Positions 38,925-63,000 of a stretch of 64,000 bases of DNA are shown one piece after another. The number at the start of each line of letters is the position of its first letter. Positions within the stretch are counted from its first letter, which is position 1. The position numbers and the translations under genes are program-made. The notes beneath the pieces were generated by a model. That model ran no database searches. It saw only the letters and a list, made by a program, of their open reading frames with translations, and was not told where the DNA came from. The stretch is from an archaeon (GTDB lineage Archaea; Nanobdellota; Nanobdellia; Woesearchaeales; GW2011-AR9), in contig JAHFQW010000004.1 of the NCBI GenBank assembly GCA_023259115.1, positions 12,768 to 76,767 of the forward strand. The letters run 5' to 3'.

Positions 38925-38934
38925 AGTCTCACTC

Positions 38935-39354: not shown

Positions 39355-39413
39355 TCTTTTAACCTACAACACGATTTTCAATAAATATAGTATAAGCCAA
39401 ACATAAACCCCTA

Positions 39414-39833: not shown

Positions 39834-39836
39834 GCG

Positions 39837-40127: not shown

Positions 40128-40248
40128 TCCTGTTTTACATCCCCTTTAAAAACTTTGCTCTTATGAAATATGTTTAATCTCTCTTTAAATATATTTGATT
40201 GTATCAATTATCTCCAGACAAATTATTTCTTTATCGATTTACTTCATC

Positions 40249-43961: not shown

Positions 43962-43970
43962 AGGGTAACC

Positions 43971-45776: not shown

Positions 45777-45819
45777 AGTATTTCAAAAGAGTTTTACCCT
45801 CAATAGAGTATGTTAACTC

Positions 45820-47292: not shown

Positions 47293-47521
47293 CGATTACA
47301 CCTCGATAATAGAAAGAAACACCCGCAGTCTTACTCTCTCTCTCTATTTTGACAATATCTCCCGACTTTAAACTCAATTTAGCGACCGCAGGATCGGTTT
47401 TAAGAATTTTTGGTAAATCACGAATTGACACAACATACTGCTCAAATAATTTAGCTTTTTCCGCCTCGCTAAGCTTTGTATGCTTAGGAACTAGTTGATG
47501 ATGATTTGTGGTAAATGCCAT
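47285..47521 (-). CDS. rpoH: DNA-directed RNA polymerase subunit H (Rpo5)
   Basis: 78 aa, HTKLSEAEKAKLFEQYVVSIRDLPKILKTDPAV. GGGAG ribosome-binding site upstream. Confidence 0.85.
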   Translation of the reverse strand: MAFTTNHHQLVPKHTKLSEAEKAKLFEQYVVSIRDLPKILKTDPAVAKLSLKSGDIVKIERESKTAGVSFYYRGVIDG

Positions 47522-47539
47522 TTTTTATCTCCCTACACG

Positions 47540-47600
47540 TTCACTCAACGTTGACTAATCTCAACATTAACTTCACTCAACTCTAACTTCTTTCACTCAA
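47540..47600 (-). promoter_or_regulatory. three direct repeats (TTGAGTGAA on the coding strand) in the rpoH upstream region
   Basis: On the plus strand, TTCACTCAA occurs at 47540, 47572 and 47592. Each is followed by a TAACTT-like half-site. Confidence 0.35.
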
Positions 47601-47682
47601 ATCTTAACTTCATTTAACTCCTCTCGACAAACTCTTCTCACCATCAAGCTAAATATTTTTTTTCCAATAAAGGAAAAATGGA

Positions 47683-47834
47683 CGGGCCGGACGGGACTGT
47701 CTCAACACGTCGCAATTGCTCCATGCTGTTTCGAACCCGCGACCGCTTGATAGCTTCTGTCTGTTATGACATCTCTGTCACAAGACCCACTTGACGTAAA
47801 AGTCAAGCGCTCTACCAAGCTGAGCTACCGGCCC
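47683..47834 (-). tRNA. tRNA-Lys (anticodon TTT) with two introns. Intron 1 is at 37/38 (47752..47796). Intron 2 is in the T-loop (47696..47728).
   Basis: Acceptor GGGCCGG/CCGGCCC plus G73. D-arm GCTC-AGCTTGGTA-GAGC. Anticodon stem CTTGA/TCAAG with loop CTTTTA|A. The intron carries GTCAAG, which can pair with the anticodon region. T-stem GCGGG/CCCGT (G-U) with T-loop TTCGAAA. Confidence 0.7.
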
Positions 47835-47837
47835 ATA

Positions 47838-47986
47838 CGCCTTGGCCGGGACTTTCACACCAACACATTAAGTGTAATAGGTATTCGAACCCGGGTCGGG
47901 GCCTTTCTTAAGCAGCATGGAAATAAGTATGAACCCTTCCACCCACCTCGACAGGGCCCCATGCTAGGCCGCTACACTACCAAGGC
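47838..47986 (-). tRNA. tRNA-Asp (anticodon GTC) with two introns. Intron 1 is at 37/38 (47905..47948). Intron 2 is in the T-loop (47851..47882).
   Basis: Acceptor GCCTTGG/CCAAGGC plus G73. D-loop AGCGGCCTA. Anticodon stem GGGCC/GGCCC with loop CTGTCG|A. T-stem CCGGG/CCCGG with T-loop TTCGAAT. Only 3 nt separate it from tRNA-Lys. Confidence 0.7.
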
Positions 47987-48490
47987 AACACTGACAGCAT
48001 ATCCCCTATCGACGAAAATCCTATGAAAAAGATAACTCGATGTAGAATAGCGTGGCCATGTTTGAACGTAAAAACGGGGGTTTACTTATAAAGCTTTCGC
48101 TCAAACATTCAAAATACATATACTGCATTATAGTAAATCCCCCCAGCGTTCAAACAAAATCATCAAATCTATCGAACATCAACCAAACAAAATTTAAAAA
48201 AGAGGAAGAGATGAAATCATCATCTTCCTCCCTGAGTCCCCCCTCCCAGAATCGAATTTCCCAAACAATACCAAATTTTTTTATTAAATTTTGTTAAAGT
48301 TTACCGGGGATCTCTCGGTCTCAGCTGACTCTTAATCATCACAGTCATTGACATATCATAAGAGTTTCTACAGCCGAGCGTTCTAGCCGCTAAACTAAGG
48401 GGGGATACTCGATAAAAACAAGAAATGATTTATAAAACTTTGTATAGAGTACTTTAAATAATTCATTATTTTATCAAAATTGAAAGTACT

Positions 48491-48542
48491 TCTTAGAGGG
48501 GTTTGAAGAATTTTAGATGGTTAATCAAACCCATTTATAGAG
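48491..48542. mobile_element. short MITE derivative with an eroded right terminal inverted repeat
   Basis: TAGAGGGGTTTGA-AGAATTTTAGATGGTTAA-TCAAACCCATTTATA. Confidence 0.5.
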
Positions 48543-48588
48543 AAGAAAACTGATTCAAAAAAAGTAAAAAGAAATTAAACCAACAGAT

Positions 48589-49575
48589 TTATTTCTTATC
48601 CTCTAAAAACGCACTCAACGCCGCCGCTCCCGACGGAACCATACTCTGCCCATACTGACTCAAAAAATCAGATATCTCAGACATTCTATGAAAAGAAAGA
48701 TTACGATGTTCAAATTTACCAGGAGCTTTCTCCCTCCAACGTTGCTCTAACTCTGATTGCGAAGCATAAATCGGAATACCGCAAATCACTTCGGGCAACC
48801 GTGACGGAATTTGTCGTATAATACCATAAAATAATGGTTCACCCATCTGTGTTGCATCCAAACCCATCTCCTCACGTAATTCCACTTTTAAATGACGTGC
48901 AATATCAATATCACGGCCATCTTTAGCCACATCAATAACCCCGCCAATCACGTGATGTACATTAGGATAAATCACCACCTTATCCGAACGCATACCAATA
49001 GGCACATAGATACTGGATTCATCTCCCAACACATTATAGCCATATAACACAGAACACACCGCCAACGCATTCGCAAAATAAAAATTAGGATCCGCACGAT
49101 CTTGCATACCACAATCCATGAGCTTTGCTCGAAATTCCGGCTCACGAATTGCCCTCTCATTTGTCCCAGAAAAATGCATATAATCCGTAACGCTCAACGC
49201 CAAATACAACTTTTTATCCTCTAGAACTGCTCTTGACAAACGATACTTCTCATTTACCCCACCTACTTGTTTCAACATACGTCCAATCTTAGATTCATCA
49301 CCCAACGCAATAGCTGAACTAAATTCTCCACTTCTCGCTATAAACATACGCTGTTGTACTGTATCCCAATACTGAAATATCCCTCGTGTAATCTCCGCCC
49401 GTTCCAGTGGAAAACTCAAGGGTTCTCCTTGCGTCACCACAACTTCTAACTCAGAAAAAGAAATAGGTGCAGCTGGTTTTACAATATATTCCCATGTCTG
49501 TTCTTCAACCATAGAAACTACTTTAAAGTGATGATATATAAATCTTTCCCTCATAACTCTGCAGAAGAATCTCAT
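48589..49575 (-). CDS. hypothetical protein with a degenerate Nudix-like segment
   Basis: IGGVIDVAKDGRDIDIARHLKVELREEMGL loosely resembles the Nudix box (REx2EExGu). Confidence 0.3.
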   Translation of the reverse strand: MRFFCRVMRERFIYHHFKVVSMVEEQTWEYIVKPAAPISFSELEVVVTQGEPLSFPLERAEITRGIFQYWDTVQQRMFIARSGEFSSAIALGDESKIGRMLKQVGGVNEKYRLSRAVLEDKKLYLALSVTDYMHFSGTNERAIREPEFRAKLMDCGMQDRADPNFYFANALAVCSVLYGYNVLGDESSIYVPIGMRSDKVVIYPNVHHVIGGVIDVAKDGRDIDIARHLKVELREEMGLDATQMGEPLFYGIIRQIPSRLPEVICGIPIYASQSELEQRWREKAPGKFEHRNLSFHRMSEISDFLSQYGQSMVPSGAAALSAFLEDKK

Positions 49576-49623
49576 TTAAAACAAAAAAATTTATTAACAC
49601 CTCGCTTTCCCCAATAGATATAT

Positions 49624-49771
49624 GCGGTAGTAGTACAGTGGTTAGTATACGGCCTTGCCATAGACTAATCTTACACAGACTACAAACAGGCTGTGACCCG
49701 AGTTCGAATATGTCACGTGAACAAAAGTAATCATAACAGATCACGCCACATCGACTGTCTCGGCTACCGCA
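49624..49771 (+). tRNA. tRNA-Gly (anticodon GCC) with two introns. Intron 1 is at 37/38 (49661..49687). Intron 2 is in the T-loop (49710..49758).
   Basis: Acceptor GCGGTAG/CTACCGC plus A73. D-arm GTAC-AGTGGTTA-GTAT. Anticodon stem CGGCC/GGCTG with loop TTGCCA|A. T-stem CCGAG/CTCGG with T-loop TTCGAAT. Confidence 0.7.
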
Positions 49772-49816
49772 TCATTTTTTTCTTGAAGAATCTAAATAAA
49801 AAAAAGTAATAATCTC

Positions 49817-50665
49817 TTAATCCAATAAAACCCATTTCTTCTCATCAATTTTCAATCTAATATCGTCATGTAACAAAGAATCATGCTTCACTAATCTTTC
49901 ATTAATACAAACTTCAAGTTCAAGACCCTCTCTCGCTACTTTTCTTCCACCATAAACTGCAACCATCGCAGCAATTGCATCTTTTGTTCTATCCATTAAT
50001 ATTGGATATTGTTCATAAAAATTCTTCCGAACATCTAAAGAAGTATACTCTGGATGTGTAACAGCCATTGCTAACCAAAAATAACTGCCCGTACAATTCA
50101 TCTTTTTTGAAAAACTTTTCCATGTTTTATTTTCAAGCGCAAAATTCGCATATTCTTTATACCCACACCAATAAACAGGTCTAGTAATCACAATATCTGC
50201 AGCTAACCACGGATCATTAATTAATTCCACTTGATTTGCAGCATAATCACTTCTTATACTATCCAAAAAATATAAACATTGTTTTAATCCACTCTCTCGC
50301 TCATCTCTCTCTAAGCTGGGATAAATCATTCCTAAAATATCCAACAGAGAACCAGTCCACTCCGGTTTAGGGCCACCAGCTAAAGACTCATAATATCGTT
50401 GAGGATTTGCCTCTCGAACTTTCTCAATAAACTCAGGTAACCGCAATACAACTTGATTTGGATTTTGTAACATCAACTGATAATATTCACAAATAACCTC
50501 ACTTGCTCGCCGCTCTATTAACGCTAATTGACTAATAACATCATCAAAACTGCATTTATTAATAGCTTCTAACTTTCGCACATACCTCTCCTTAACTGCT
50601 TTTTCAAAATCAATTAAATCGCCCATATGAAACACCAACAAACCATGAAGAACATCTATCAACAA
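49817..50665 (-). CDS. hypothetical protein
   Basis: 282-aa ORF. Confidence 0.4.
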   Translation of the reverse strand: MLIDVLHGLLVFHMGDLIDFEKAVKERYVRKLEAINKCSFDDVISQLALIERRASEVICEYYQLMLQNPNQVVLRLPEFIEKVREANPQRYYESLAGGPKPEWTGSLLDILGMIYPSLERDERESGLKQCLYFLDSIRSDYAANQVELINDPWLAADIVITRPVYWCGYKEYANFALENKTWKSFSKKMNCTGSYFWLAMAVTHPEYTSLDVRKNFYEQYPILMDRTKDAIAAMVAVYGGRKVAREGLELEVCINERLVKHDSLLHDDIRLKIDEKKWVLLD

Positions 50666-50829
50666 ATTATTACGGATTCACCATAAACTAATTAATACAC
50701 TAATTAATACTAAAATAAATCCTAGTCCTTTTATAATTTTCCCTCAAAAGAGATCAAATCAAAACTCATTTAATCATTTTTTTTCTCAATTCATAACATT
50801 TTTAAAGATTAAACAGCCATACAAATCAT

Positions 50830-51738
50830 ATGCCACAACAAATCCCGCAGCAAAAAGACAAAACAAGCTCTGCAACAACAGATATTGATCAAGAATATTT
50901 TCTTCAAAATACCATTCTTCAAACTGATTTTCTCTGCGATGCCGCAAGCCTCCTCTCACCACGTAGTACAAAAAGTCAATTTCTCGTAGGAACATTTGGC
51001 AGCGAACATCTTGAACTCCTTGTCCCTGTAACAAAAATCGATCATCTAGACCAAAAACCCATGAGCCCTGCAATCCCCTATCCCATGTATCGTGCTGACC
51101 TTGAATCAAATCTTGCATTAATGTACACAATACAAATGCACCACCCCCTCAGTCCTGCACCAAAACTTCAAGAAGAAAGAGATGAACTCCTGCGCCGATC
51201 AGAAAAACGCTTCAATGATTTAGGATGTGAATATGGTACAGTAAAAGGGTTATATTACAAAGCGATGGCAGCATATTTTCCTGCCGCCTGTTCTGCCATG
51301 CAAATAAAAGCAAAAACACAACAAGAAACAGAAGAAATGTGCAAACTACTCACTCAAGCTATAAATCTCTTTGAACAAACAGCACAAAAAGCAAAAGAAT
51401 ATCACGAATTATACCACACATTTGCATTATATAATTTAGGCCGCTCTCATTTTACCCTTGGCCAAAAAGAATTGGCTCAAACCTATTTTAACCAAGCAAA
51501 ACAAACACCTCTAATCAAAAGAATAGAGAGAGTAGAAAAACATTATGTTAATCAACTCATCAACTGGCATCTAGAAAATATTGACAGTTCATTTTGTGGG
51601 GTTGTTCTTCCAGACCAAGAAAAAATAGAAGAAAAAGTAAGAACAGAAATAAAAAATGTTTTTGTAGGAATATATGGTGGAGGAAATATTGGAGAAGAAC
51701 TCTTCAAATATAGAATAGAGACACAATATATGATATAA
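50830..51738 (+). CDS. hypothetical protein
   Basis: 302-aa ORF. Confidence 0.4.
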   Translation: MPQQIPQQKDKTSSATTDIDQEYFLQNTILQTDFLCDAASLLSPRSTKSQFLVGTFGSEHLELLVPVTKIDHLDQKPMSPAIPYPMYRADLESNLALMYTIQMHHPLSPAPKLQEERDELLRRSEKRFNDLGCEYGTVKGLYYKAMAAYFPAACSAMQIKAKTQQETEEMCKLLTQAINLFEQTAQKAKEYHELYHTFALYNLGRSHFTLGQKELAQTYFNQAKQTPLIKRIERVEKHYVNQLINWHLENIDSSFCGVVLPDQEKIEEKVRTEIKNVFVGIYGGGNIGEELFKYRIETQYMI

Positions 51739-51800
51739 AACAGAGATCACAGAAAAACAGAAAATATTATTCGCTCTATTTCAGTCTCTCATCCAGATAT

Positions 51801-52187
51801 CTACTCCAAAAACAGCACTCCTTTCTCCGACTTAAAATGCGGGTCCCCTGTAACTATTTTTCCTCCCACCCTTCTTGCTAATACTAAGACAAACGCATCC
51901 GCAAGTCCAAACCCCGGAACTTTAGCACGAGTCTGGGCATGAATTAATCCCACTTCTTTGCAAAAATCAGCATCAGCAGGAATAATTTGAGATAATCCTT
52001 GTATCGCTCGAAAAGCAGCTTCGCCATCAAAACCTTTTCTTTTTATTCGACTCACCACCTCAGCCATAGTTACCGCATGTGTGAGAATTTCATGGTTTGA
52101 AAACAGCAATCCTTTTACAATATATCCCTGAGAACTTCCTTCCAAATATTCTATCCAAGCATAGGCATCAATGACAAATTTAGTCAT
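51801..52187 (-). CDS. vapC: PIN-domain toxin VapC
   Basis: N-terminal FVIDAYAWIEYL (conserved Asp) and C-terminal DAFVLVLARRVGGKIVTGDPHF. Confidence 0.75.
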   Translation of the reverse strand: MTKFVIDAYAWIEYLEGSSQGYIVKGLLFSNHEILTHAVTMAEVVSRIKRKGFDGEAAFRAIQGLSQIIPADADFCKEVGLIHAQTRAKVPGFGLADAFVLVLARRVGGKIVTGDPHFKSEKGVLFLE

Positions 52188-52377
52188 GCGTAATCAACTC
52201 ATCTTCTGCGCTGAAACGTCCCACACCTTTAAATTTACCAAACCAGTCTTGTTTTACTTTTACTATCTCGATACGCACAACTTCATCCGACTGGATATGT
52301 TCTAGTTCTATTATCTCTGGAGGGATACGTACCATCATTGAACCCCCCACTTTTCTAGTTGTGACAAGCGCTTCCAT
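52180..52377 (-). CDS. vapB: AbrB/SpoVT-type antitoxin VapB
   Basis: TRKVGGSMMVRIPPEIIELEHIQSDEVVRIEI swapped-hairpin motif. 8-nt overlap with vapC. Confidence 0.65.
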   Translation of the reverse strand: MEALVTTRKVGGSMMVRIPPEIIELEHIQSDEVVRIEIVKVKQDWFGKFKGVGRFSAEDELITHD

Positions 52378-52477
52378 TTTTATTTACCCAAGATATAATT
52401 ATATTAACAATAAGTTATATTTAAATGTTTTGGCAAAAATTAAGAAAAATCAGTAAAAATCCTCAAAACAAACAACT

Positions 52478-54235
52478 CTACTCCACCACTGCTTTAATCC
52501 TTCGAACCCCTGCAGCACACGCTTCTTCTTTTAAAATCTTAAATGTTCCTATCTGCCCCGTATGTTCTACATGCGGACCCCCGCAAAACTCTTTGGAATA
52601 ATCCCCCACAACATACACCGACACACGATCAGGATACTTCACCCCAAACTCCGCCTGCGCACCCAACTTCTCCGCATCTGCTTTAGCCATCTCTGTACGC
52701 ACAACCCCAAGATCAAGCCCAATCACTCGATTCACCTCATTCTCAACTCTCTTCACTTCATCTGCGGTCAATTTTCGTTCAAAACTAAAATCAAAACGCA
52801 ATCGCTCCGGTGTAATATTCGAACCACGTTGATGAATATCTTTAGAAATCACCCGTCGCAAAGCCTCATTCAATAAATGCGTTGCCGTATGCATCCGCAC
52901 AACCACTTCTGAAGTATCCGCAAGTCCTCCTTTAAACTTCTTCTCCGCACCCACTCGAGATAACTCTTTATGCTTTTCATATTCTGCTAAAAACTCTTTG
53001 ACATCAACAGAAATACCCTTCTCCTGCGCCAACTCTTCTGTCATCTCCAGAGGAAAACCGTATGATTGAAACAACAAAAACGCATTTACCCCACTAATTG
53101 CACCTAACACCACCATCTTCTCAAACTCTCGCAGCCCATTCTCAAGTGTCTTCTCAAACTTCTCTTCCTCTTTATGCAACTCATCCAAAATTTGTATTTT
53201 ATTCATCTCAAGTTCCGGATACATCTCACCATAATCACAAATCACCACTTGCGCAACCTCTCTCAAAAACAATCCCGAAATACCAACCATCTTCCCATAT
53301 CGTATCATCCGTCGAATTAAACGCCGTAGAATATATCCTCGATCAACATTTGATGGCAGCACCGCATTCTCATCTCCTAACACAAACACCGCCGCTCTGA
53401 TATGATCCGCAATAATTCTCATCTCTCGTAAATATTGAGCATACTTCTTCCCACTCAACTCCTCAATTTTAAAAATCAACCCAGAAAATAAATCCGTTTC
53501 ATACGCACTCTTCTTACCATTCAATAGAGCCAATGTTCTCTCTAAACCCATACCTGTATCTACATTCTTTCGAGTAAGCGCAACAACCGACCCATCAGCT
53601 AATTTATTATAGCACATAAACACATCATTCCAAATCTCCACCCATCGAGTATCCTGCGCATCAAACTTCTCTGGCGCATCTCCTTCGCCCTTCCAGTAAA
53701 ACATCTCAGAACTCGGCCCACAAGGGCCAGTATCACCTGCAATCCAGAAATTATCTTTTCCTAAAAACGCAATTCGCTTCTCCGCCACTCCCAAAGACCG
53801 CCACATCGCATAAGATTCTTCATCACGTGACACATTTTTATCACCCTCATACACGGTAAACGCCAGCATTTTAAGTGGAATATGCAGCCACTCTTTCCCC
53901 GTCAAAAATTCAAAACTCCACATAATTGCTTCTTTCTTAAAATAATCTCCCAAAGACCAATTTCCCAACATCTGAAAAAACGTATGATGGGTATTATCCC
54001 CAATATTCTCAAAATCAACCGTACGTAAACATTTTTGCACATTCACTAACCGCATCCCTAATGGGTGAGACGTACCAGATAAATAAGGTACAAGTGGCTG
54101 CATCCCCGCCGTATTAAATAACACACTCGCATCATTGCTTGGAATCAACGACGCTGATGGAATAATCGCATGCCCTTTTGACGTAAAAAACTTCAAATAC
54201 AAATCCCGCAGCTCTTTAGCTTTCATCATAACCAT
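52478..54235 (-). CDS. alaS: alanine--tRNA ligase, short bacterial-type form (585 aa) lacking the C-Ala domain
   Basis: FTSKGHAIIPSASLIPSNDASVLFNTAGMQP, WSLGDYFK, the editing-domain HTATHLLNEALRRV motif and the CGGPHV Zn site. Confidence 0.85.
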   Translation of the reverse strand: MVMMKAKELRDLYLKFFTSKGHAIIPSASLIPSNDASVLFNTAGMQPLVPYLSGTSHPLGMRLVNVQKCLRTVDFENIGDNTHHTFFQMLGNWSLGDYFKKEAIMWSFEFLTGKEWLHIPLKMLAFTVYEGDKNVSRDEESYAMWRSLGVAEKRIAFLGKDNFWIAGDTGPCGPSSEMFYWKGEGDAPEKFDAQDTRWVEIWNDVFMCYNKLADGSVVALTRKNVDTGMGLERTLALLNGKKSAYETDLFSGLIFKIEELSGKKYAQYLREMRIIADHIRAAVFVLGDENAVLPSNVDRGYILRRLIRRMIRYGKMVGISGLFLREVAQVVICDYGEMYPELEMNKIQILDELHKEEEKFEKTLENGLREFEKMVVLGAISGVNAFLLFQSYGFPLEMTEELAQEKGISVDVKEFLAEYEKHKELSRVGAEKKFKGGLADTSEVVVRMHTATHLLNEALRRVISKDIHQRGSNITPERLRFDFSFERKLTADEVKRVENEVNRVIGLDLGVVRTEMAKADAEKLGAQAEFGVKYPDRVSVYVVGDYSKEFCGGPHVEHTGQIGTFKILKEEACAAGVRRIKAVVE

Positions 54236-54297
54236 AATTACAAACTAACATCTCAACAGATTTTTAATACTTTCGGCAAAATAATTTTTCCATACCC

Positions 54298-55581
54298 CTA
54301 AACTCTAACAAGTACCCCTCTCAACTCCATCTTCCCCCCTGGTTTAATTCTCACCGTCACAAACTCCCCTATTCGACAATTCCCCTCCACAACCACCAAC
54401 TTATACGCCGCAGTTCGTCCAATCCACTCCCTCTCATTCTTCTTGTCTGAAATAAATACTCGACCCTGCCATCCCCACCACTTCTCATTACGTAAAATCA
54501 TGCCATTATGAAACACCTCATAGAGCACCGCTGCTCGTTTACGAACCTCATCAGCATCTTTAGCCGCACTCGAAATCGTTGCCACCACCATCTCATCTGG
54601 AACTATTGCACGAATCATAGACAGCGTCTTAAAATGATCATCCTCCGTTTCATCCGGAAACCCTACCAACACAGAAGTCGAAATGACCGCATCAGAAAAT
54701 CTCCATCGAAACTTATTCACAACATCCGAAAAATCCTCCGCCCCATACGAAAATCCGCAGTTCTGCAAAATCCGCGTACTCCCACTAAACAGCGGCACAT
54801 TCCAATAACGATACAACTTCTCGCTGGTATACACATTAATTAATTCATCACCAAACCCTCGCATCCCCTCCACACTCATCCGCTCAACCAACACATTAAA
54901 ATCCCCTGGGACCCGCACCACTTCTCGCAGCAATCGCGCAAGATTTATCCCAATATCTTTGCCATACTGCGCACAATCAACCGAACTCAACATGATCTCA
55001 CGCGCCCCCGCCTCTACCGCCACTCTCACGGCATTGCAAATCTCCTCAATCGGATACGAAACAAGCTGTCTTGGCCCTCGACGTTGCGACAAAAAAACAA
55101 ACAAATCATAACATCCCCGCGTAATTGGAATTATTTCTACAAAACTCTCTTCACTCCATTTTCTCCCAAGCAACAACGACGGCATCTCATCACGCTGTAA
55201 ATAATTCAATTTATTGTCATGCAATAACTCTTCCACCACCTCCACAATATGATGAAACTTACGTGACGACACTAAACAATATCCTCGCAATCTCTCCACC
55301 TGTGTATGATCAAAACACCCAACCACAATAACCATTTTATAGGGATATTCCTTCTTTAATCTCTCAATCTGCTCAAAAAAGTCCCTCTCCGTATCCATAG
55401 TAACTAAACACACCGAATAAATCAGAACATCCGCTTTCTCAACCTCTAAAGCACACCCAAACTTTGCCTCCATAAGCAACCCCGTCATCTGCTGCGCATC
55501 CGCAATCGTATGGCTATTTCCCAGAGCCACAATCTGAAATGAAGTCATAGCCCTCTTCAAGACATCTCCATATATAAACAT
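54298..55581 (-). CDS. MiaB/MtaB-like methylthiotransferase homologue with a degenerate radical-SAM cysteine motif
   Basis: MTTase N-domain (YSVCLVT, VVGCFDH), radical-SAM core backbone (SYPIEEICNAVRVAVEAGAREIMLSS, WNVPLFSGSTRIL) and TRAM-like C-terminus. The CxxxCxxC site reads RGCYDLFVF and the first N-domain Cys is GNSHT. Confidence 0.6.
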   Translation of the reverse strand: MFIYGDVLKRAMTSFQIVALGNSHTIADAQQMTGLLMEAKFGCALEVEKADVLIYSVCLVTMDTERDFFEQIERLKKEYPYKMVIVVGCFDHTQVERLRGYCLVSSRKFHHIVEVVEELLHDNKLNYLQRDEMPSLLLGRKWSEESFVEIIPITRGCYDLFVFLSQRRGPRQLVSYPIEEICNAVRVAVEAGAREIMLSSVDCAQYGKDIGINLARLLREVVRVPGDFNVLVERMSVEGMRGFGDELINVYTSEKLYRYWNVPLFSGSTRILQNCGFSYGAEDFSDVVNKFRWRFSDAVISTSVLVGFPDETEDDHFKTLSMIRAIVPDEMVVATISSAAKDADEVRKRAAVLYEVFHNGMILRNEKWWGWQGRVFISDKKNEREWIGRTAAYKLVVVEGNCRIGEFVTVRIKPGGKMELRGVLVRV

Positions 55582-55625
55582 TTATCCACACAAGAATAAT
55601 CATATTACAATCCATAACCGTCATA

Positions 55626-57071
55626 TTGCAATCCACAAATCTTAAAAAACAAGCCCTCAAAACGAATTACATGACCCGTGGCATCATCGAAAAATGGGGT
55701 GGCACATCTCTTGCCACAGCACAACAAGACCTTCTTGCCCTAGAGCATACCCTCACCACCCACCAACCTGACAGCTACACCATTTTCGTTCCCTCCGGTC
55801 CTGGAAAAACAAATAACACCAAAGAAGGCAGAAAAGCAACCGATCACGCCTACGATATTGTCAACAACATCAACCGCGATACAGAATGGCACATCCTCAC
55901 ACAAATCCTTCAAAAAAAAATCAATGACCACAACTTGCCCAAAGAAACCCTTGACTCACTCCTAACAGAAATATCAACCATTCTCCAAAGCGCAAACATA
56001 GATCAACAAGCGCAAGCAAAAATAATTGGTGTACCCGAACGCGCCCAAGCAAAAATAATATATGAACTAGGTATCAGAAATTACCCTCAATACTCCTTCG
56101 CCCTTCTCGACTACAACCAAAATGGCATGATTGGCGATTCCTCATGTTCCTCAAATCGTGATGTACCAATAGACCACCATAACACACTCAAAACCATTGC
56201 ACAACAAATCAAAACGCACAACCTCAAAGGAAAAATCGCCATCGTCCCCGGCTTCATTGGCACAAAATCTGGCACAGATCAAATGGTCACTCTAGAACGT
56301 GGCACGTCCGATGGCACCGCCACCTATTACGGAGCAGCTTTATATGCAGACGAAGTACGTATCTTTAGCGACCAAAACGGCATTCTTCCCGTAGACCCAG
56401 ATATAATAGACAACCTCACCCCATTAAAAGAATTAACCTATCGCGAAGCTGAAGCATTTGCCGGCCTAGGCGCAAAAATCATCAACGATGTAGCCATCCG
56501 TCCTGCCAAAGAGCGCGGCATACTCGTGAGAATTCTCAACAGCCTAGATCTCACCCAGCAAGGCACAAACATTCGTGCCAACCCCTCAACCGACCACTAC
56601 GGAGTCAAAGCCATTGCGAACGTTCCCGGATACCAATTAATAACCGTACATGATATGCGCATGAACCAAAAAGGCATCGCCGCCAAAGTATCCTCCCTCT
56701 TCGCAGACTACGACCTAAGTATTGACGCTGAAAGTGATGGTGACTCTTGCCGCACGTATGCCATTATCCCAAACGACAACACCTCAAAATTAATCAACCA
56801 ACTCGCATCCCTCGAACATCGTACAACCATCATCAATCGCATGGCCCGCATCGCTCTCATTGGCGAAGGCATGGAATACATTCCTCACAGTAACGCCAAA
56901 ACCGCAGACCAAATATTACTCGAAACCCTCAAAACCCAAGGCATTCCCCTAGAAATGTATACCCACACCAAAAATTCAGTTATCCGTTCATTTTTCATAC
57001 CCCAAGAACACACCCATCAAGCCATAACCCATCTTTACCGCGCTTTTGAATTCCACAGAAATGGAAAGTGA
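55626..57071 (+). CDS. aspartokinase-like amino-acid kinase with C-terminal ACT domains
   Basis: IEKWGGTS N-terminal motif and PGFIGTKSGTDQMVTLERGTSDGTATYYGAALYADEVRIFSDQNGILPVDPDII (GFIG...LGRGGSD...TDVDG...DP pattern). Two ACT-like repeats follow. Confidence 0.6.
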   Translation: MQSTNLKKQALKTNYMTRGIIEKWGGTSLATAQQDLLALEHTLTTHQPDSYTIFVPSGPGKTNNTKEGRKATDHAYDIVNNINRDTEWHILTQILQKKINDHNLPKETLDSLLTEISTILQSANIDQQAQAKIIGVPERAQAKIIYELGIRNYPQYSFALLDYNQNGMIGDSSCSSNRDVPIDHHNTLKTIAQQIKTHNLKGKIAIVPGFIGTKSGTDQMVTLERGTSDGTATYYGAALYADEVRIFSDQNGILPVDPDIIDNLTPLKELTYREAEAFAGLGAKIINDVAIRPAKERGILVRILNSLDLTQQGTNIRANPSTDHYGVKAIANVPGYQLITVHDMRMNQKGIAAKVSSLFADYDLSIDAESDGDSCRTYAIIPNDNTSKLINQLASLEHRTTIINRMARIALIGEGMEYIPHSNAKTADQILLETLKTQGIPLEMYTHTKNSVIRSFFIPQEHTHQAITHLYRAFEFHRNGK

Positions 57072-57147
57072 CCTTATTCAATAACACGTAACAGAACACG
57101 TAGCACTTTTCAAAAACAAATATCCCGAAAACTGATATCAAATAGAA

Positions 57148-57429
57148 CTAATATCGAATAGGGCTTGTAAAATAACAATCACCTTGCGGCTCGCCACGTT
57201 TCTCATGATTAAGCGCCCAACCGAAACCTCGAAGATACTGAGAATCACCTTGAAACTCTTGTGAAGAAACACGTTCAATTCCTGTAGCAATAAGCCCCAA
57301 TTCTTGCATCCTGATCATCACCGTTTGCTCATCCGTTGCAAAACAATGAATCTCTTGCCGTGAACCCCCATCATTAACCGTAACCCGAAACGAAGAACAT
57401 CTGCCAACCAGCATATCTAAACCTGCCAT
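57148..57429 (-). CDS. hypothetical protein
   Basis: 93-aa ORF. Confidence 0.3.
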   Translation of the reverse strand: MAGLDMLVGRCSSFRVTVNDGGSRQEIHCFATDEQTVMIRMQELGLIATGIERVSSQEFQGDSQYLRGFGWALNHEKRGEPQGDCYFTSPIRY

Positions 57430-57517
57430 AACAAAAGAAAGTCATAGAAATATATAAATTCTTCGAAAAAAAAGTACGCCCAAAAGATTTATATATACAT
57501 AAACATATATATACCCT

Positions 57518-57730
57518 ATGAGCGAAATAATAAGCATATCTGATGATGTATATACAGAACTCACCAGAATCAAACAACAAGAGAGCTACTCAGTTGTCAT
57601 TCGTAAACTCCTTCATAATCAAAGCAATAAAGAAAAAATCCTCTCATTTTACGGTAAAGGCGGTATCGAAAAAGAAAAAATAAAATCACTAGACAAAGAG
57701 TGGCAACAATGGTCAAAAAAATATGTCTAG
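57518..57730 (+). CDS. vapB: VapB-family antitoxin (PF02697-like)
   Basis: ISISDDVYTELTRIKQQESYSVVIRKLL. A TATA box (GATTTATATATA) lies ~25 nt upstream, so the transcript is leaderless. Confidence 0.6.
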   Translation: MSEIISISDDVYTELTRIKQQESYSVVIRKLLHNQSNKEKILSFYGKGGIEKEKIKSLDKEWQQWSKKYV

Positions 57731-58086
57731 ATTCTGACATCATTATAAACCTCCTCCATGGAGAGCCGAAAACCAAACAACTTCTAGAAAAACTAGACGC
57801 AGAATTTTTCATGACCACCATCAACTCATTCGAAATCTGGCAAGGCCGCAAAAATAACGAACTCATCTTTGAATTTTTAGAAAGTACCCCTCTTCTTGCA
57901 TTTGATCAAAAGGCCGCATTAAAAGCCGGAGATATAACCAAAGATCTCAGAAAACAGGGCAATCCCCTTGAAATACGTGATGTGTTTATAGCCGCCATTT
58001 GCATTACGCAAAACATTGAATTACTTACCCTCAACAAAAAACACTTTGAACGATTAGAAAAATATGGATTAATACTAACAAAGTAA
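57700..58086 (+). CDS. vapC: PIN-domain toxin VapC
   Basis: KICLDSDIIINLL and DVFIAAICITQNIELLTLNKKHFERL. The true start is probably the Met at 57709; it overlaps the antitoxin end. Confidence 0.7.
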   Translation: MATMVKKICLDSDIIINLLHGEPKTKQLLEKLDAEFFMTTINSFEIWQGRKNNELIFEFLESTPLLAFDQKAALKAGDITKDLRKQGNPLEIRDVFIAAICITQNIELLTLNKKHFERLEKYGLILTK

Positions 58087-58102
58087 AAGATACCACCAAA
58101 AT

Positions 58103-60832
58103 TCACAACCCCAATCTCCCCAGAATCACATCCGCATCAAACTTCTCTAAATCTGTATACTCCTGACCTACACCTAAAAATAAGATAGGCTTCTTAATTG
58201 TATATGCAATCGATAATGGCGCCCCACCTTTCTCATCCACATCTACTTTTGTTAAAATTGCCCCATCCATCTCAACCAAAGAATTAAACTGGCGTGCCTG
58301 TTCAATACAATCATTTCCCGTAATACTCTCACCTACAAAAAGCTTCAAATCTGGCTTCACCACTCGAATAATCTTCCCCAACTCCGCCATTAAATTAGTA
58401 TTCGAATGCAACCTTCCCGCCGTATCAATCAACACCACATCAATCTTATTCTTAATCGCATACTGCACCGCATCAAATGCTACTGCCGCCGCATCACTTC
58501 CATAATCCTGTTGAATCATCTTCACTCCCAGCTTTTTCGCATGTTCACCTAACTGCTGAATTGCTGCTGCCCGAAACGTATCACACGCCGCAAGCACCAC
58601 AGAAAGACCTTGCTGCTGCAAATGATACGTCAACTTCGCAATCGACGTCGTCTTCCCCGTTCCATTGATACCAAAAAACGCAATAACATACGGCTTCTGC
58701 TTTTTCGCAGCTATCCTCTCACTCAACTCTGTAGATTCAAACGCTAATATTTCGCGTAACGTCCCCTCTAGAGTTTTATGAATCTTCTCACCCACATCCC
58801 ACGGCAACGGCTTACCTACCAATTCATGGCCCAAATCAACTTTAATTTTCTCTATCACTTCAACAGAAACATTATTCTCAAGTAACGCAAGTTCCAAATC
58901 CCAAAACAACTCCTCAAACTTCTCCGAAGAAATCGTTCGAGACGTAATCGTTTCTTTAATCTTGCCAAAAATAGTCTTCTTCTGTGGTTCTTGCAAAATC
59001 TCCCCATCAACCTCTTTAACTTTAGAATCTTTAACTTTAGACACATTAAATTCAATATCACTTTTCTCAGGGAGAGAAACTGGTTTTTCTTTTATGTTCT
59101 CTTCTTGCATCCTCTCATCAAACTCTTCCTCAACATTCTTCTTAAAAGAAAACGTCTCTTTCAACTTCCCCAAAAAACTTTTTTTCTGCTCACGAACCTC
59201 TTCTCTTTGTGCAATCCCTGAAATATCTACTGTATGTTCAATAGCATAATCCCACCCTAATTGAAATGCTCTTCGTAACCTCCAATCTTGGGCAATCGCC
59301 TGCTCCCACGTTTTCTGCTTCAACAAAACATCCAATGCCAACTGCGGTGCCTGATGCGCCACAATCGCTACATGCTTCCCATAATAATTCTCAAATAGAA
59401 AATTAACAAACTCTGCCATTCTTTTCTCTACATCATGATAACTCTCCCCGTTTGGAAATGTTTCACCAACATACTCACCCATCCTCTCTTTAAACAAACT
59501 CGCTTTCTCACCGTTAAAATCGCCATAATTTGCCTCTCTCAAACGTGCATCTTCAATAATAGGAATATTTCTGTCCGGAAACATTAATTTGGCAGAATCA
59601 ACTGCTCGTTTCAAATCAGAACAAAACACCACCTCAAAATTGTGACTTCGTAATTTTATTGCTGACTCTTTTGATTGTGTAATTCCTAATATTGAAAGCT
59701 CACCAGGATTCCAACCTGTTGCGATATCCCGTTCATTATCCGTTGTTGTACCATGAACAAAATACGTAATTTTCACACCATTGATTTCTTCAGAAACATG
59801 ATCCTCCCCCGTTTCTTTCATAGTTTCTTGACTGACATCTAATGATTTATTTTTTTGAACAACCGCTTCTTTCTTCTCACCTTTTTCTCGTTTTTCCTGC
59901 TCTCTCACCTTCGCAAAATGCTCCATCTGTTGAGCTAACACACTTTTCTTATCAGACAATTTTGAAGAATGAGTAATTTCTTTTTCTTTATGATCAAAAA
60001 CGCCAACTTTAAAATCTCGTGCAAATAATTCTTCTAAAATAGCCAATCTTTTTACACCTTCACTCTCAGTCATATGAGCATAGTTCTCAAAAACTTGAAT
60101 TTCTGCAACATCCTTGAATGAATTGATGTAAAAATCTCTTATTTCATCCGTAATCCACGGATCTTTTAGACCAAAAACAAACGCCATTTCATCTACATTA
60201 TTTTTTATTTTTTTAAAATCCAATCCTCTATCTTGGAATTCTCTAAAAACACGTAATTCCTCTGAATTCAGATTCTTCCCAAATAATTTAAAATAATCTT
60301 GAGACGGTTTTGCGCCAACGGGAGCCACCATGATTAACTTTTTTACTTTATATCTCTCGGCTAATTTTAATGCCAGTAGGCCCCCCATACTATGTCCCAC
60401 CAGATTTAAGTTATCTTTATTTGCTTGAACAATCTTTTTTTCAGCAAAAGAAAACCATTTTTCAAAAGTAGGTTTATCACTATCTGGCTGGTCAAATGAT
60501 TCAGCAACATACTCTTTTTTATGTAAATATTCTTTTAATTTTGGGATAAAACCAGATTGAGAATTATCATCCCACCCATGAAAAATTAAAACATGTTCTC
60601 TTTCCTTTTTTCCACCAGATACCCCCTCATTTTTTTTAACTGGAGCAACAACCTTCTCTTCTTTTTTGACAGATTCAACTTGTTTCACAACTTGTTTCTC
60701 AACAGTTATAGGAATCTTTTCCTCAGAAACTTCTTTCTCCACTTCCCGCTGCGTAACTTCCGCCTCTTCCTCCGCCTTGCGAGAAAAAATCGACAACGCG
60801 CTCTTCAGCTTATCTTTGAATTTACCAAACAT
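58103..60832 (-). CDS. ftsY: signal recognition particle receptor FtsY, as a single 909-aa ORF. The N-terminal ~550 aa contain an alpha/beta-hydrolase (esterase) domain and a histidine-phosphatase (PGM-family) domain.
   Basis: C-terminal NG domain: IAFFGINGTGKTTSIAKL, DTFRAAAIQQL, LIDTAGRLH and TKVDVDEKGGAPLS. N-terminal part: LIFHGW...VGHSMGGLLALKLA (GxSxG esterase) and ITYFVHGTTTDNERDIATGWNPGELSILG...VFCSDLKRAVDSA (RHG-phosphatase-like). Confidence 0.8.
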   Translation of the reverse strand: MFGKFKDKLKSALSIFSRKAEEEAEVTQREVEKEVSEEKIPITVEKQVVKQVESVKKEEKVVAPVKKNEGVSGGKKEREHVLIFHGWDDNSQSGFIPKLKEYLHKKEYVAESFDQPDSDKPTFEKWFSFAEKKIVQANKDNLNLVGHSMGGLLALKLAERYKVKKLIMVAPVGAKPSQDYFKLFGKNLNSEELRVFREFQDRGLDFKKIKNNVDEMAFVFGLKDPWITDEIRDFYINSFKDVAEIQVFENYAHMTESEGVKRLAILEELFARDFKVGVFDHKEKEITHSSKLSDKKSVLAQQMEHFAKVREQEKREKGEKKEAVVQKNKSLDVSQETMKETGEDHVSEEINGVKITYFVHGTTTDNERDIATGWNPGELSILGITQSKESAIKLRSHNFEVVFCSDLKRAVDSAKLMFPDRNIPIIEDARLREANYGDFNGEKASLFKERMGEYVGETFPNGESYHDVEKRMAEFVNFLFENYYGKHVAIVAHQAPQLALDVLLKQKTWEQAIAQDWRLRRAFQLGWDYAIEHTVDISGIAQREEVREQKKSFLGKLKETFSFKKNVEEEFDERMQEENIKEKPVSLPEKSDIEFNVSKVKDSKVKEVDGEILQEPQKKTIFGKIKETITSRTISSEKFEELFWDLELALLENNVSVEVIEKIKVDLGHELVGKPLPWDVGEKIHKTLEGTLREILAFESTELSERIAAKKQKPYVIAFFGINGTGKTTSIAKLTYHLQQQGLSVVLAACDTFRAAAIQQLGEHAKKLGVKMIQQDYGSDAAAVAFDAVQYAIKNKIDVVLIDTAGRLHSNTNLMAELGKIIRVVKPDLKLFVGESITGNDCIEQARQFNSLVEMDGAILTKVDVDEKGGAPLSIAYTIKKPILFLGVGQEYTDLEKFDADVILGRLGL

Positions 60833-60838
60833 AATAAA

Positions 60839-61246
60839 TCACCGTATGTGTTCTTCCACTTCTTTATAAACTTTCATCGCTTGATTCGTCAACTGCTGCA
60901 ATATTTCTTCTGCTTCTACCAAACGTAGTGCCAATTCTTTTTTTTGCTCTTGCAACAACTCTAACACTTGACCGGAATTCTTCTCAACCACCGTATTAGC
61001 TCCCACATTCACAAGCAGCGTTGTGCTCTCCTGTAATGTTGCTTTCATAAAAATCCCATTAGCAATTGGCGCCAACACCTCTCCCCCAACTTGCGCAATC
61101 GCCAACTCCTCAATTGCCGCAGAAGATTCCTCTAGATCAACCGTATGCTGTTGCATCAGCTCCACTTGCTGTGTAATCTGTTCAATCTGCTGCTGCAGCA
61201 TCTGGAAATAAGCATATTTTTGTTGAATCTCTTCTTCACGAACCAT
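60839..61246 (-). CDS. pfdA: prefoldin alpha subunit
   Basis: Coiled coil, central beta-hairpin VLAPIANGIFMKATLQESTTLLVNVGANTVVEKN, then coiled coil. Confidence 0.7.
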   Translation of the reverse strand: MVREEEIQQKYAYFQMLQQQIEQITQQVELMQQHTVDLEESSAAIEELAIAQVGGEVLAPIANGIFMKATLQESTTLLVNVGANTVVEKNSGQVLELLQEQKKELALRLVEAEEILQQLTNQAMKVYKEVEEHIR

Positions 61247-61303
61247 TCTCTCCTCAGAATAGAGCTATTTTATAAGATTTGTGGAGAAAATAACTCTTTA
61301 ATC

Positions 61304-62533
61304 TCATTCCACACCCAAAACCCCATTTGTACTCTTCGTAATCACAAAATCTAATTTACCAGACAACCGCTCATCTCGTTTTTTCAAAAATTCAGAAATC
61401 GACTCACCTACCTGATTACAATAAAACGCTTTAGCTAACACATAATTCAACGAAATCACGCTCATCCAATCACTATGGCTTTTATAATACCCCTCCGATT
61501 TTTCAGGCAACGTATCCGAAAACAATGTCTGAACCCCTGCTCTCCTCATCCTCTCTTCAGCAGATATTCCTCTCTTAGGACTCAGTAACGCATGGGTTGC
61601 ACAAATATAGACTTCAGCTTTCCTATCATCACGTAAATATTGCACCGGACCAATTTTATTATTCTCAAACTCTCCCACAAGCGTACTCCCCGAATCAATA
61701 ATATCATCAACCAAAATAACTTTTTTTCCTTTCACATCAGATGGTAAATAAAACTGATGTTCCGCCTCACTATGCCCTGTTCGATGCTTCTCAAGCACAA
61801 TATTTTGCACTCCTAACGCTTTAGCCAACGTTCGTGCCCTCTTTGCCCCACCTGCATCAGGCGAAATCACCAGCACATCAGCCCTGCCTGATGCAAAAGA
61901 ATCTTTAAACAAATCACGATAATACGCCGCAAAATCCGGAATCGCACTTAATTCATCCAGTGGCCCATTAAAATATCCCTGCTCTTGTTTTGCATGTAAA
62001 TCAAATGTCACAATCCGCTTCAACCGATGGCCAAATGCCGATTCCACATCATCATAAAACTTGCGTGCAGAAATAGACACTCGCCCATCATCCTTTTTAT
62101 CTTGGCGTTGATACGGTATAAAGGGTAAATATAACGTCACCGAACCAACTCCTGCTCGTTTCAACGCATCACCAAACTCCGTTAACTCCTCTTTACTCAA
62201 ATTTGGATCAGAAAATTTATGAAAATAATGTACATCTTTCTCTCGAACATTTTCTTGTACTTGTACAAAAATTTCTCTATCATTTTGTTGTTTACTAATT
62301 TTATTGACAAATCGTAAATTTGTCTTCTTCATTGCCTCAATAATCTCTTGTTCTTTATCAGTTGGTTCTTTAAACTCTTTATCAATACGTTCATGAATTT
62401 TCTCTTCCAATGATTCCTGAGAACCAGCATATGCCGAATTACTCAACAGCACCACTTTGCGTAAAGCGCCAAGCTTAAGAAACCTATCTAACTCTTCTAA
62501 TGCCCCAAAAGTCATACTCCAAGAATTATTCAA
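61304..62533 (-). CDS. prs: ribose-phosphate pyrophosphokinase (PRPP synthetase) family protein with an N-terminal insertion
   Basis: DVLVISPDAGGAKRARTLAKAL and the PRPP-binding KKVILVDDIIDSGSTLV motif. Confidence 0.6.
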   Translation of the reverse strand: MNNSWSMTFGALEELDRFLKLGALRKVVLLSNSAYAGSQESLEEKIHERIDKEFKEPTDKEQEIIEAMKKTNLRFVNKISKQQNDREIFVQVQENVREKDVHYFHKFSDPNLSKEELTEFGDALKRAGVGSVTLYLPFIPYQRQDKKDDGRVSISARKFYDDVESAFGHRLKRIVTFDLHAKQEQGYFNGPLDELSAIPDFAAYYRDLFKDSFASGRADVLVISPDAGGAKRARTLAKALGVQNIVLEKHRTGHSEAEHQFYLPSDVKGKKVILVDDIIDSGSTLVGEFENNKIGPVQYLRDDRKAEVYICATHALLSPKRGISAEERMRRAGVQTLFSDTLPEKSEGYYKSHSDWMSVISLNYVLAKAFYCNQVGESISEFLKKRDERLSGKLDFVITKSTNGVLGVE

Positions 62534-62677
62534 AACCTATATAATCATTTATCTTCCTAAAGACAATATATCTAAAACATCTATTTGAAAACACACATAA
62601 TTGATTCAAAAACACAATCACAACAGTTTCAGGGAATTAAACCCATTTTCATTGAATCAAACCTCTTCCTTTTCTCC

Positions 62678-62726
62678 ATAGAGGACTTTGAATAACCCAT
62701 ATATTCATCAATATTCAAAGTCTACC
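62678..62726. mobile_element. short palindromic element of variant type 1
   Basis: TAGAGGACTTTGAATAACCCATATATTCATCAATATTCAAAGTCTACC is near-identical to 7479..7524. Confidence 0.55.
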
Positions 62727-62877
62727 AAAAGACCTAATTTCTTATAATGATAGTTATGTCTTTTGTAGATACGAGAAAATAAGAAACAACTTATTTTCTG
62801 TACAGAAAACAAATCGTTTTTGTTTTCTTGTACAACGGACAGAACTATTGATATTATTATTTCTGTCCGTTGGTATC

Positions 62878-63000
62878 CTTCTTAGAGGAGTTTGACAAGT
62901 AAAAATCACTTGCCTATTTGAACACTTGAGGTGATTTTTACTCTTGAAAATGGTTTTTGCATTTTCATTGAGTTTTATAGGGTTAATCAAACTCCTCTAT
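62878..63000. mobile_element. full-length MITE-like element (~123 bp) with 13-bp terminal inverted repeats and a structured internal cargo
   Basis: The TIRs TAGAGGAGTTTGA (62883..62895) and TCAAACTCCTCTA (62987..62999) are a perfect inverted repeat. The cargo 62899..62970 contains the AAAAATCAC...GTGATTTTT hairpin. Confidence 0.7.

Follow-up and report, generated by a model that had tools for sequence, protein, structure and literature searches.

The 64,000-nucleotide stretch of contig JAHFQW010000004.1 analysed here (positions 12,768 to 76,767 of the forward strand; assembly GCA_023259115.1, order Woesearchaeales), referred to below as the window, encodes a methylthiotransferase (MTTase)-like protein in which three of the six cysteines that bind iron–sulfur clusters in active enzymes have been replaced. 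The longest open reading frame (ORF) in the ORF list, 427 amino acids, spans 54298..55581 (-), and its residue numbering is used throughout. The coding sequence is probably 54298..55548 (-), giving 416 amino acids from a start at ATG 55548, because relatives start with MT(T/S)FH/Q and because the box TTTATATA lies upstream. Translated from this ATG the window protein begins MTSFQ, and its homologues begin MTTFH or MTSFH. The box, which resembles a TATA box and was read directly from the sequence at 55572..55579 (-), lies 24–31 nt upstream of the ATG and is probably the promoter of a leaderless, monocistronic transcript of the archaeal type. The gene itself appears monocistronic; the alanyl-tRNA synthetase (AlaRS) gene downstream and the divergent gene upstream each have an A/T-rich box of their own.

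The preliminary description of this stretch had recognized all three MTTase domains, and this was borne out by Pfam and by full-length superposition on MiaB, both of which gave the order UPF0004, radical S-adenosylmethionine (SAM), TRAM. The UPF0004 domain (PF00919, E 7e-12) occupies residues 16–98 (55288..55536, -). The radical-SAM-like partial TIM-barrel core (residues ~147–340; 54562..55143, -) was placed by column analysis and by a PF04055 match of 26.6 bits, which falls short of the Pfam gathering score of 29.5. The TRAM core lies at residues 368–427 (54301..54480, -), with a PF01938 match to residues 374–422 (E 4e-8). The best NCBIfam model is TIGR01578 (MiaB-like-B, of the e-MtaB/CDKAL1 type), on which the protein scores 236.3 bits against a cut-off of 314.7; on the general MTTase model, TIGR00089, it scores 209.9 against 251. 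The protein is thus a full-length homologue of the e-MtaB/CDKAL1-type MTTases, with the same architecture and length as the enzymes for 2-methylthio-N6-threonylcarbamoyladenosine (ms2t6A) and 2-methylthio-N6-hydroxynorvalylcarbamoyladenosine (ms2hn6A) from M. jannaschii (MJ0867) and M. acetivorans (MA1153), and it is nested among Woesearchaeal e-MtaB proteins in a neighbour-joining (NJ) tree. Its descent from a known family is clear, yet it fails the tests that define that family.

Active MTTases bind an auxiliary, sulfur-donating [4Fe-4S] cluster through an N-terminal CysX35–36CysX32–33Cys (PMC5352715). In the window protein the six cluster ligand positions are N22, C58 and C89 in the N-terminal domain and C157, F161 and L164 in the radical-SAM domain. 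Direct translation of 55090..55113 (-) gives CYDLFVFL (C157-Y-D-L-F161-V-F-L164), which aligns to the GCLGxCxYC of canonical e-MtaB and stands in place of CxxxCxxC; a single radical-SAM cysteine, C157, is left, the other two having become F161 and L164, so that the CX3CX2C pattern is broken. At 55507..55524 (-), where active enzymes show (F/Y)GC, translation reads LGNSHT, and the first cysteine of the auxiliary cluster is replaced by Asn22; C58 and C89 are kept, and the auxiliary spacing pattern is broken as well. Both replacements had been noticed earlier, together with the conclusion, which we share, that the canonical [4Fe-4S]–SAM cluster cannot be bound: judged from the sequence, the protein cannot hold it with two of the three radical-SAM ligands gone, and one ligand of the auxiliary cluster is gone too.

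Two further ideas were examined and rejected. The loss of cysteines is not a by-product of strand bias, as the gene's coding strand, being rich in G+T, favours TGY codons. A His/Glu-rich helix, HHIVExVEExLHxN (residues 110–123), is not a new metal site, as cysteine-intact canonical relatives carry most of it; the canonical protein P0398, for example, reads HHIVEITEE, with Asn replacing the last His of the helix. The window also contains the gene for Taw1/TYW1 (62987..64000, -, running past the window end; TIGR03972 match), another two-cluster radical-SAM tRNA enzyme, with an intact CANRCTFC motif that is shared by a full-length orthologue at the related locus L083. This intact CX3CX2C in the same window shows that [4Fe-4S]/SAM enzymes are still made and used by the organism, and that the loss is specific to the MTTase-like gene.

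The gene is real, being neither a chance ORF nor a sequencing error. The identical protein is present in the NCBI, ENA (ERZ27280021) and Logan (SRR14366787) assemblies, and a 99.8% variant in SRR14366783. Together with five further 90%-identity clusters (P0002–P0006), which are 55–57% identical to the window protein, the window cluster makes up what we call group A, comprising 21 sequences from NCBI, JGI, ENA and Logan. Its members share the motifs RGCYDLF(S/A/V)FLS(K/Q)R, G(N/I)SHT, SVCLV and VGC, and the N-domain column state is NCC in every one of them. Three old cysteines (C58, C89 and C157) are kept in group A, and two new ones are invariant in six of its six proteins: C275, which replaces the Met of MxRxY, and C404 in the TRAM domain. 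The degenerate radical-SAM motif is unchanged across proteins that have diverged by 45%. Orthologues from sister genomes with an intact CxxxCxxC had been named beforehand as the sign of a sequencing error; those found carry the degenerate motif, and none has the intact one. Although the source is a metagenome assembly, a sequencing or assembly artefact or a chimeric contig of a metagenome-assembled genome (MAG) is hardly credible, since the protein was recovered in four independent assemblies, the motif occurs in five further clusters from other samples, three separate codons are altered, and the synteny of AlaRS, FtsY, prefoldin, Prs and Taw1 is common to L083. A generic MTTase peptide pattern saturated a scan of GTDB genomes with the family alignment, and the matches listed were all distant homologues (27–28% identity); a scan of metagenome contigs with the window protein returned a single unrelated match (24%).

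Relatives were gathered by two profile searches, one across 1.84 billion representative proteins and the other word-indexed. Among the 150 best representatives, 140 have the canonical state CCC/CCC (N-domain triad/radical-SAM triad). Wherever a non-canonical protein could be placed in trees, it sits in one and the same fast-evolving Woesearchaeal e-MtaB sub-clade, P0400 and P0397 having been placed in the bootstrapped tree only and the fragments P0253 and P0255 in a single other tree only. At least 20 distinct 90%-identity clusters have eroded motifs, and all are full-length. The six clusters of group A read NCC/CFL. In the nine clusters of a second group, B (P0007–10 and P0392–96), the radical-SAM triad is wholly lost and so are most N-domain cysteines, as in DHS/VAF. 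Other members read YCC/SCC (P0244), -CC/CSS (P0400), KCC/CCA (P0260) and NCC/C-- (P0366); P0254 reads LCC/S??, with the first radical-SAM cysteine lost and the last two alignment-dependent (SCW or SFT). N-domain cysteines only are lost in P0013, P0397, P0248, P0252, P0306 and P0331, and all six cysteines are kept in P0249 and P0347. One more protein without CX3CX2C, P0105, was dropped from the list of dead enzymes after it proved to be a bacterial MiaB with a CxCxxC variant.

With the six cysteine columns excluded, NJ trees recover each of groups A and B as monophyletic in 100 of 100 bootstraps and the two as exclusive sisters in none, and the joint clade that holds both includes canonical members in 99 of 100. 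The radical-SAM motif has therefore been lost independently at least twice, and the differing residues lost in the other relatives suggest further loss events. On TIGR01578 the eroded sub-clade scores 191–277 bits against 425–441 for its canonical sisters (P0398, P0399, P0011 and P0014); the canonical Woesearchaeal relatives reach 378–399 bits on TIGR00089. Two members with three radical-SAM cysteines, P0249 and P0013, nonetheless score only ~237–250 bits on TIGR01578. The arginine of MxRxY, R277, is 99% conserved in canonical proteins and is lost in almost all members of the sub-clade, including P0249, P0347, P0013 and P0397, which keep the radical-SAM cysteines; P0347 also has a deletion in the SGS region. 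Intact cysteines are accordingly no guarantee of an active enzyme in this sub-clade. Because R277 is lost and the family-model scores collapse even in cysteine-intact members, a functional shift probably occurred at the base of the sub-clade, and the cluster ligands, by then superfluous, would have been lost piecemeal afterwards.

The fold has outlasted the ligands. An AlphaFold2 model built on a 64-sequence alignment has a predicted local distance difference test (pLDDT) score of 90 and a predicted template modelling (pTM) score of 0.90; its least confident blocks are the N-terminal extension (residues 1–10, pLDDT 48) and then the former cluster loop (residues 161–170, pLDDT 56). With the whole chain, Foldseek matched MiaB 7mjz with a template modelling (TM) score of 0.87 and RimO 4jc0 with 0.80; overall, the model aligns to MiaB (7MJV–7MJZ) and RimO (4JC0) with TM scores of 0.86–0.87 and 0.79–0.80 at 22–25% identity, and RimO is also matched by sequence (E 5e-25). 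MgmA, LipA, BioB, HydE and HemN were matched as well, and the model has the partial (beta/alpha)6 TIM-barrel fold.

The residues inside this fold have changed extensively. Conservation reaches at least 85% in 60 columns of an alignment of 115 canonical e-MtaB proteins. Of these columns, 30 survive in group A and 39 in group B; 44 of them lie in the radical-SAM core, where 19 and 28 survive, respectively. The 25 core columns replaced in group A include R231L, H261N, Q265F, M275C, R277F and D303S, and these six positions of e-MtaB are all altered in the window protein. The e-MtaB active-site motifs RxGMxNP, HxPxQSGS, MxRxY and TDxIxGFPxE are accordingly not preserved. What group A retains of the SAM-binding core is D202, the SGS motif, G307 and E311, and of the TRAM domain R389, Y393 and G405. 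The replaced columns of group A evolve like ordinary positions, 14 of 30 (47%) being invariant against a background of 41%. In group B a single one of 21 is invariant against a background of 42%, and this hypervariability indicates a site freed from constraint within a scaffold that is still constrained.

These figures bear on the idea that the protein has become a new enzyme, its remodelled pocket still binding SAM or a nucleoside and carrying out a cluster-independent reaction, or else holding a metal or cluster through a non-canonical set of ligands, such as C157 joined by C275 or C404, or another residue joining C58 and C89. Unusual ligand arrangements are found in the radical-SAM relatives Dph2, ThiC and HmdB. 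The 14 columns fixed in group A (F161, L164, E233, R234, S236, V237, C275, F277 and H316 among them), the surviving part of the SAM-binding core and the invariance of the two new cysteines would all suit such an enzyme. We nevertheless regard it as unlikely: the fixation of replaced columns shows no excess over background, the would-be cluster loop is the second-least confident part of the model after the N-terminal extension, the family-wide Arg277 is lost, and group B is similarly conserved with no radical-SAM cysteines at all and with hypervariable former active-site positions. The new cysteines may moreover be compositional, as the G+T-rich coding strand favours TGY.

In the MTTase reaction, SAM on the radical-SAM cluster first methylates the sulfide of the auxiliary cluster, and a second SAM is then reductively cleaved to activate C2 of A37 (PMC5352715, PMC10702137). 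Both clusters are indispensable for this chemistry (PMC5352715; PMC10702137), and CDKAL1 loses its function when cysteines are mutated to serine (PMC5544666). In MiaB and RimO the two [4Fe-4S] clusters lie ~8 Å apart and are bridged by a pentasulfide (PMC5352715), whereas the window protein has one of three ligands for the radical-SAM cluster and two of three for the auxiliary cluster. Because so few ligands are left and the catalytic-core residues have been replaced, the window protein is very probably unable to perform the MTTase reaction, and would make neither ms2t6A nor ms2hn6A. With the cluster ligands missing, it is also predicted not to cleave SAM reductively to the 5'-deoxyadenosyl radical.

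A dead enzyme may be on its way to becoming a pseudogene, and the preliminary description had offered decay as one of two possibilities, the other being a pseudo-enzyme retained for RNA binding or chaperoning. Every one of the 21 group A and 14 group B sequences is full-length; six coding sequences were retrieved as DNA, and all are intact, with no internal stop or frameshift. Pairwise dN/dS by the Nei–Gojobori method (NG86) is 0.115–0.146 within the subclade of L083, L088, L089 and L090; the sole pair with unsaturated dS (L088 against L089, 0.57) gives 0.146 by NG86 and 0.075 by the Yang–Nielsen method (YN00). Neighbouring genes give similar values: 0.10–0.15 in three genome pairs for the aspartokinase-like gene, and 0.11 for AlaRS, which was compared between the window and L083 only. 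The window sequence against the rest of group A gives 0.21–0.32, but here dS is saturated at 1.1–1.8. These data show that purifying selection maintains the degenerate protein across a Woesearchaeal lineage. Decay was thus abandoned, and the pseudo-enzyme stood: its cofactor residues are gone, yet sister orthologues share the degenerate motif, their ORFs are intact and dN/dS is 0.08–0.15.

Under the pseudogene hypothesis, selection would have been relaxed once ms2t6A became dispensable, as the ms2 modification is in M. acetivorans (PMC10702137), and the ORF would be open by chance. The missing ligands, the loss of half of the conserved residues, scores under every curated family cut-off and an apparently fast rate (57% identity between window and L083, against 84% for AlaRS and 82% for the aspartokinase-like protein) all fit. 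We consider it very unlikely all the same, since none of the eroded clusters is truncated, omega is ~0.1 where dS is unsaturated, the degenerate motif is identical at 45% divergence, the promoter-like element is intact, and prefoldin is equally diverged (53–54%), so that the rate is unexceptional. A four-fold acceleration on the window branch, which the identities of the aspartokinase-like (82/70/72%) and MTTase-like (57/57/80%) proteins had seemed to indicate, was likewise rejected. The corresponding values for the AlaRS N-terminus (87.7/86.2/90.2) and prefoldin (53/54/81) place the window lineage merely as the outgroup of group A, and prefoldin diverges as fast as the MTTase-like gene. Polarized substitutions divide 15 against 9, with 54 unpolarized.

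We therefore favour, at a probability of roughly 60%, the view that the window protein is a descendant of e-MtaB that is no longer a radical-SAM enzyme, is catalytically dead and has been retained for a cluster-independent role. On this proposal the ancestral e-MtaB would have had a secondary, non-catalytic binding function, which the descendant keeps; the shift in function would have come where the eroded sub-clade begins and the MxRxY arginine is lost, and each lineage would then have dropped different cysteines that were no longer needed. The role that we prefer is that of a chaperone or reader that binds the anticodon stem-loop of tRNA through a basic TRAM domain. In MTTases, TRAM is the basic domain that binds tRNA (PMC5352715), and here its core has a charge of +6 in the window copy and a mean of +2.7 (pI 9.0) in group A, matching canonical basicity.

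Several observations weigh against this view. The TRAM core of group B is neutral. Whole-protein charge in group A is -4 to -11, whereas that of the closest canonical relatives is mostly -1 to +11 (median ~+3, range -9 to +34) and the canonical family mean is +12; MiaB touches tRNA with each of its three domains (PMC10702137, citing Esakova 2021), and the acidification of the whole protein argues against unchanged tRNA binding. The old C58, C89 and C157 together with the new C275 and C404 could form a non-canonical metal site in group A. The omega values, finally, are rough, since most pairs have saturated dS and the skew in codon usage is extreme. The earlier suggestion that the protein was retained for RNA binding or chaperoning thus draws mixed support, the TRAM core being still basic and the protein as a whole acidic. 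TRAM-mediated tRNA binding is plausible and would be the most likely role, and a role as protein partner or scaffold is nearly as likely because the other two domains have been acidified.

A related possibility is that the protein serves as the non-catalytic subunit of an intact MTTase or another enzyme encoded elsewhere, for which it would take over the binding of substrate. Among RNA-modifying enzymes, pairing with a dead paralogue is common (Trm6/Trm61, ADAT3/ADAT2, METTL14/METTL3). The acidic shift of the N-terminal and radical-SAM domains would suit a new protein–protein interface, and in groups A and B, though not beside canonical relatives, the gene has a divergent aspartokinase-like neighbour. 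This adjacency is however absent at L090, L087 and L097, and may be inherited synteny. A search for a second, intact MTTase, proposed in the preliminary description, found no other homologue within the 64-kb window, and no canonical e-MtaB could be tied to any group A or B assembly, the sole candidate, P0401, belonging to other assemblies. Archaeal genomes, moreover, generally encode a single MTTase (PMC10702137). On balance we find a partner subunit of this kind rather improbable.

The window also encodes Kae1 (30918..31883, -; TIGR03722, 376.3 bits against 375), which acts in t6A synthesis and so makes the substrate nucleoside of canonical e-MtaB. It had been cited as the usual partner of an ms2t6A enzyme. 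The gene is indeed there, but the argument is weak: t6A is universal, and the presence of Kae1 is therefore uninformative on ms2t6A.

More tentatively, the sub-clade as a whole may have repeatedly and independently turned the e-MtaB/CDKAL1 scaffold into an Fe–S-free protein with a selectable function of its own, which could be that of a reader or chaperone of t6A-containing tRNA or of a partner of the aspartokinase-like neighbour. If so, canonical e-MtaB/CDKAL1 would have a second, catalysis-independent function sufficient to keep the gene after its chemistry was lost, and these proteins would form a cluster-less family of radical-SAM methylthiotransferases, the first to be described. We found no description of cluster-less MTTase homologues in the literature, and no relevant paper joining methylthiotransferases with DPANN archaea or radical SAM with pseudo-enzymes. 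Pseudo-enzymes are common; that a radical-SAM MTTase should be conserved after losing its clusters, and this in parallel, comes as a moderate surprise. A dead MTTase under purifying selection, with parallel losses in sister lineages, would be a natural experiment pointing to a non-catalytic role of the scaffold, and the graded intermediates of the sub-clade (auxiliary cluster first, radical-SAM cluster after) may illustrate how Fe–S enzymes are dismantled in reduced genomes. There is also a practical side: two [4Fe-4S] clusters define the radical-SAM MTTases, yet P0392, from group B, bears the public label 'MiaB/RimO family radical SAM methylthiotransferase', most members being nameless in the sources, and ms2t6A would be wrongly inferred for these DPANN genomes from such a label. 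The proteins are small, soluble-looking and readily testable.

Precedents exist in other families. The tRNA chaperone activity of TruB and TrmA is independent of catalysis, and these two, like the dead subunits Trm6, ADAT3 and METTL14, offer an analogy for a scaffold that may be selectable without chemistry, though none of them is a radical-SAM or Fe–S protein. HemW/RSAD1 and CgdH2 use a radical-SAM scaffold as a heme chaperone, not as a radical catalyst (PMC10320005, PMC10114718). In contrast to the window protein they keep CX3CX2C, and HemW keeps its cluster too (PMC10320005); these HemN-like proteins differ in family and ligand, and are comparable by analogy only.

The divergent neighbour mentioned above is an aspartokinase-like gene (AA_kinase plus ACT domains by Pfam and NCBIfam; 55671..57071, +) whose product scores well under every aspartokinase cut-off (TIGR00657, 160.8 against 208.7). 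The divergent pairing occurs in the window and at L001, L083, L084, L088 and L091 in group A, and at L085 and L086 in group B. The canonical loci L092, L093 and L095 have no such neighbour; canonical genes are instead followed by a phosphoglucomutase/phosphomannomutase (PGM/PMM) gene. As the pairing may be simple inherited synteny, we treat it as a lead and not as evidence of a functional link. A dihydrodipicolinate synthase (DHDPS; dapA-like) gene lies near the aspartokinase-like gene at L083, L084 and L088, an unexpected biosynthetic content for DPANN.

The window and L083 share a syntenic block of Taw1, Prs, prefoldin, an FtsY fusion, the aspartokinase-like gene, the MTTase-like gene, AlaRS and RpoH, and the window holds RpoH/RpoB-type synteny besides prefoldin and FtsY. 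The AlaRS gene (52478..54235, -; 582–585 amino acids) encodes a protein 72–78% identical to proteins of 'Candidatus Woesearchaeota archaeon' and 'Nanoarchaeota archaeon'. With this gene content, the source is a DPANN archaeon of the Woesearchaeales, tiny and of symbiotic type; DPANN is a superphylum of ultra-small archaea. It consists of the catalytic domain and the tRNA_SAD editing motif without a C-Ala domain; among its 120 best relatives nearly all have 533–644 amino acids (most 581–608, three ~705), so that the short form is typical of the lineage. Genes for PIN-domain (VapC-like) toxins flank the locus at 51801..52187 (-) and 57700..58086 (+). At L001 and L083, VapBC or MazE/PemK pairs occur at varying sites among the aspartokinase-like, MTTase-like and AlaRS genes, and such toxin–antitoxin cassettes explain much of the variation in synteny between the window or L001 and L083. 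The signal-recognition-particle (SRP) receptor FtsY (58103..60832, -; TIGR00064, 302 bits) carries a fused serine-hydrolase (alpha/beta hydrolase) domain at its N-terminal side, and in the window a His_Phos_1 (histidine-phosphatase) domain as well, for a total of 909 amino acids. The FtsY–hydrolase fusion is present at L083 (753 amino acids; 4842..7103) and absent at L090 (563 amino acids).

A marked strand asymmetry runs through the entire window. GC skew is -0.335 over positions 1..64000 and negative in each 2-kb bin, down to -0.54, with no change of sign in 64 kb. At third codon positions it is -0.72 in plus-strand genes and +0.72 in minus-strand genes, and these opposite values make the asymmetry independent of the direction of transcription. 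The skew alters amino-acid composition, plus-strand genes being rich in T, N, Q, H and P. Its absolute value is 0.32–0.39 at the loci of all group A relatives (including L001, L083, L088, L090 and L091); group B loci (-0.04 to -0.07) lack this bias, as do other loci from Woesearchaeales (0.007 and 0.14). We found no literature on strand asymmetry this extreme, and it may be more unusual than the MTTase finding itself.

A compositional island at 32100..33400 (G+C 0.26–0.31) has a GC skew of +0.27 to +0.31, opposite in sign to its surroundings. It contains a TrmB-like helix-turn-helix regulator gene of 244 codons (32572..33306, +) and a 111-codon ORF (32140..32475, -), and its pattern would fit either an inversion or an acquisition of recent date; at L088 the TrmB gene is only 31% identical, and its skew follows its own genome. 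The DNA gyrase B gene (24999..28286, -; 1095 amino acids) is interrupted by an intein (Intein_splicing, residues 468–891), and among the relatives the SMC gene at L092 also has an intein, with a LAGLIDADG domain. At the group B locus L097, on contig JAUSEI010000068.1 of a Nanoarchaeota MAG, a 424-amino-acid ORF at 783..2057 (-) adjoins Cdc48 and matches Pfam Sigma70_r2, r3 and r4; it could have been transferred horizontally, belong to a virus or plasmid, or result from faulty binning.

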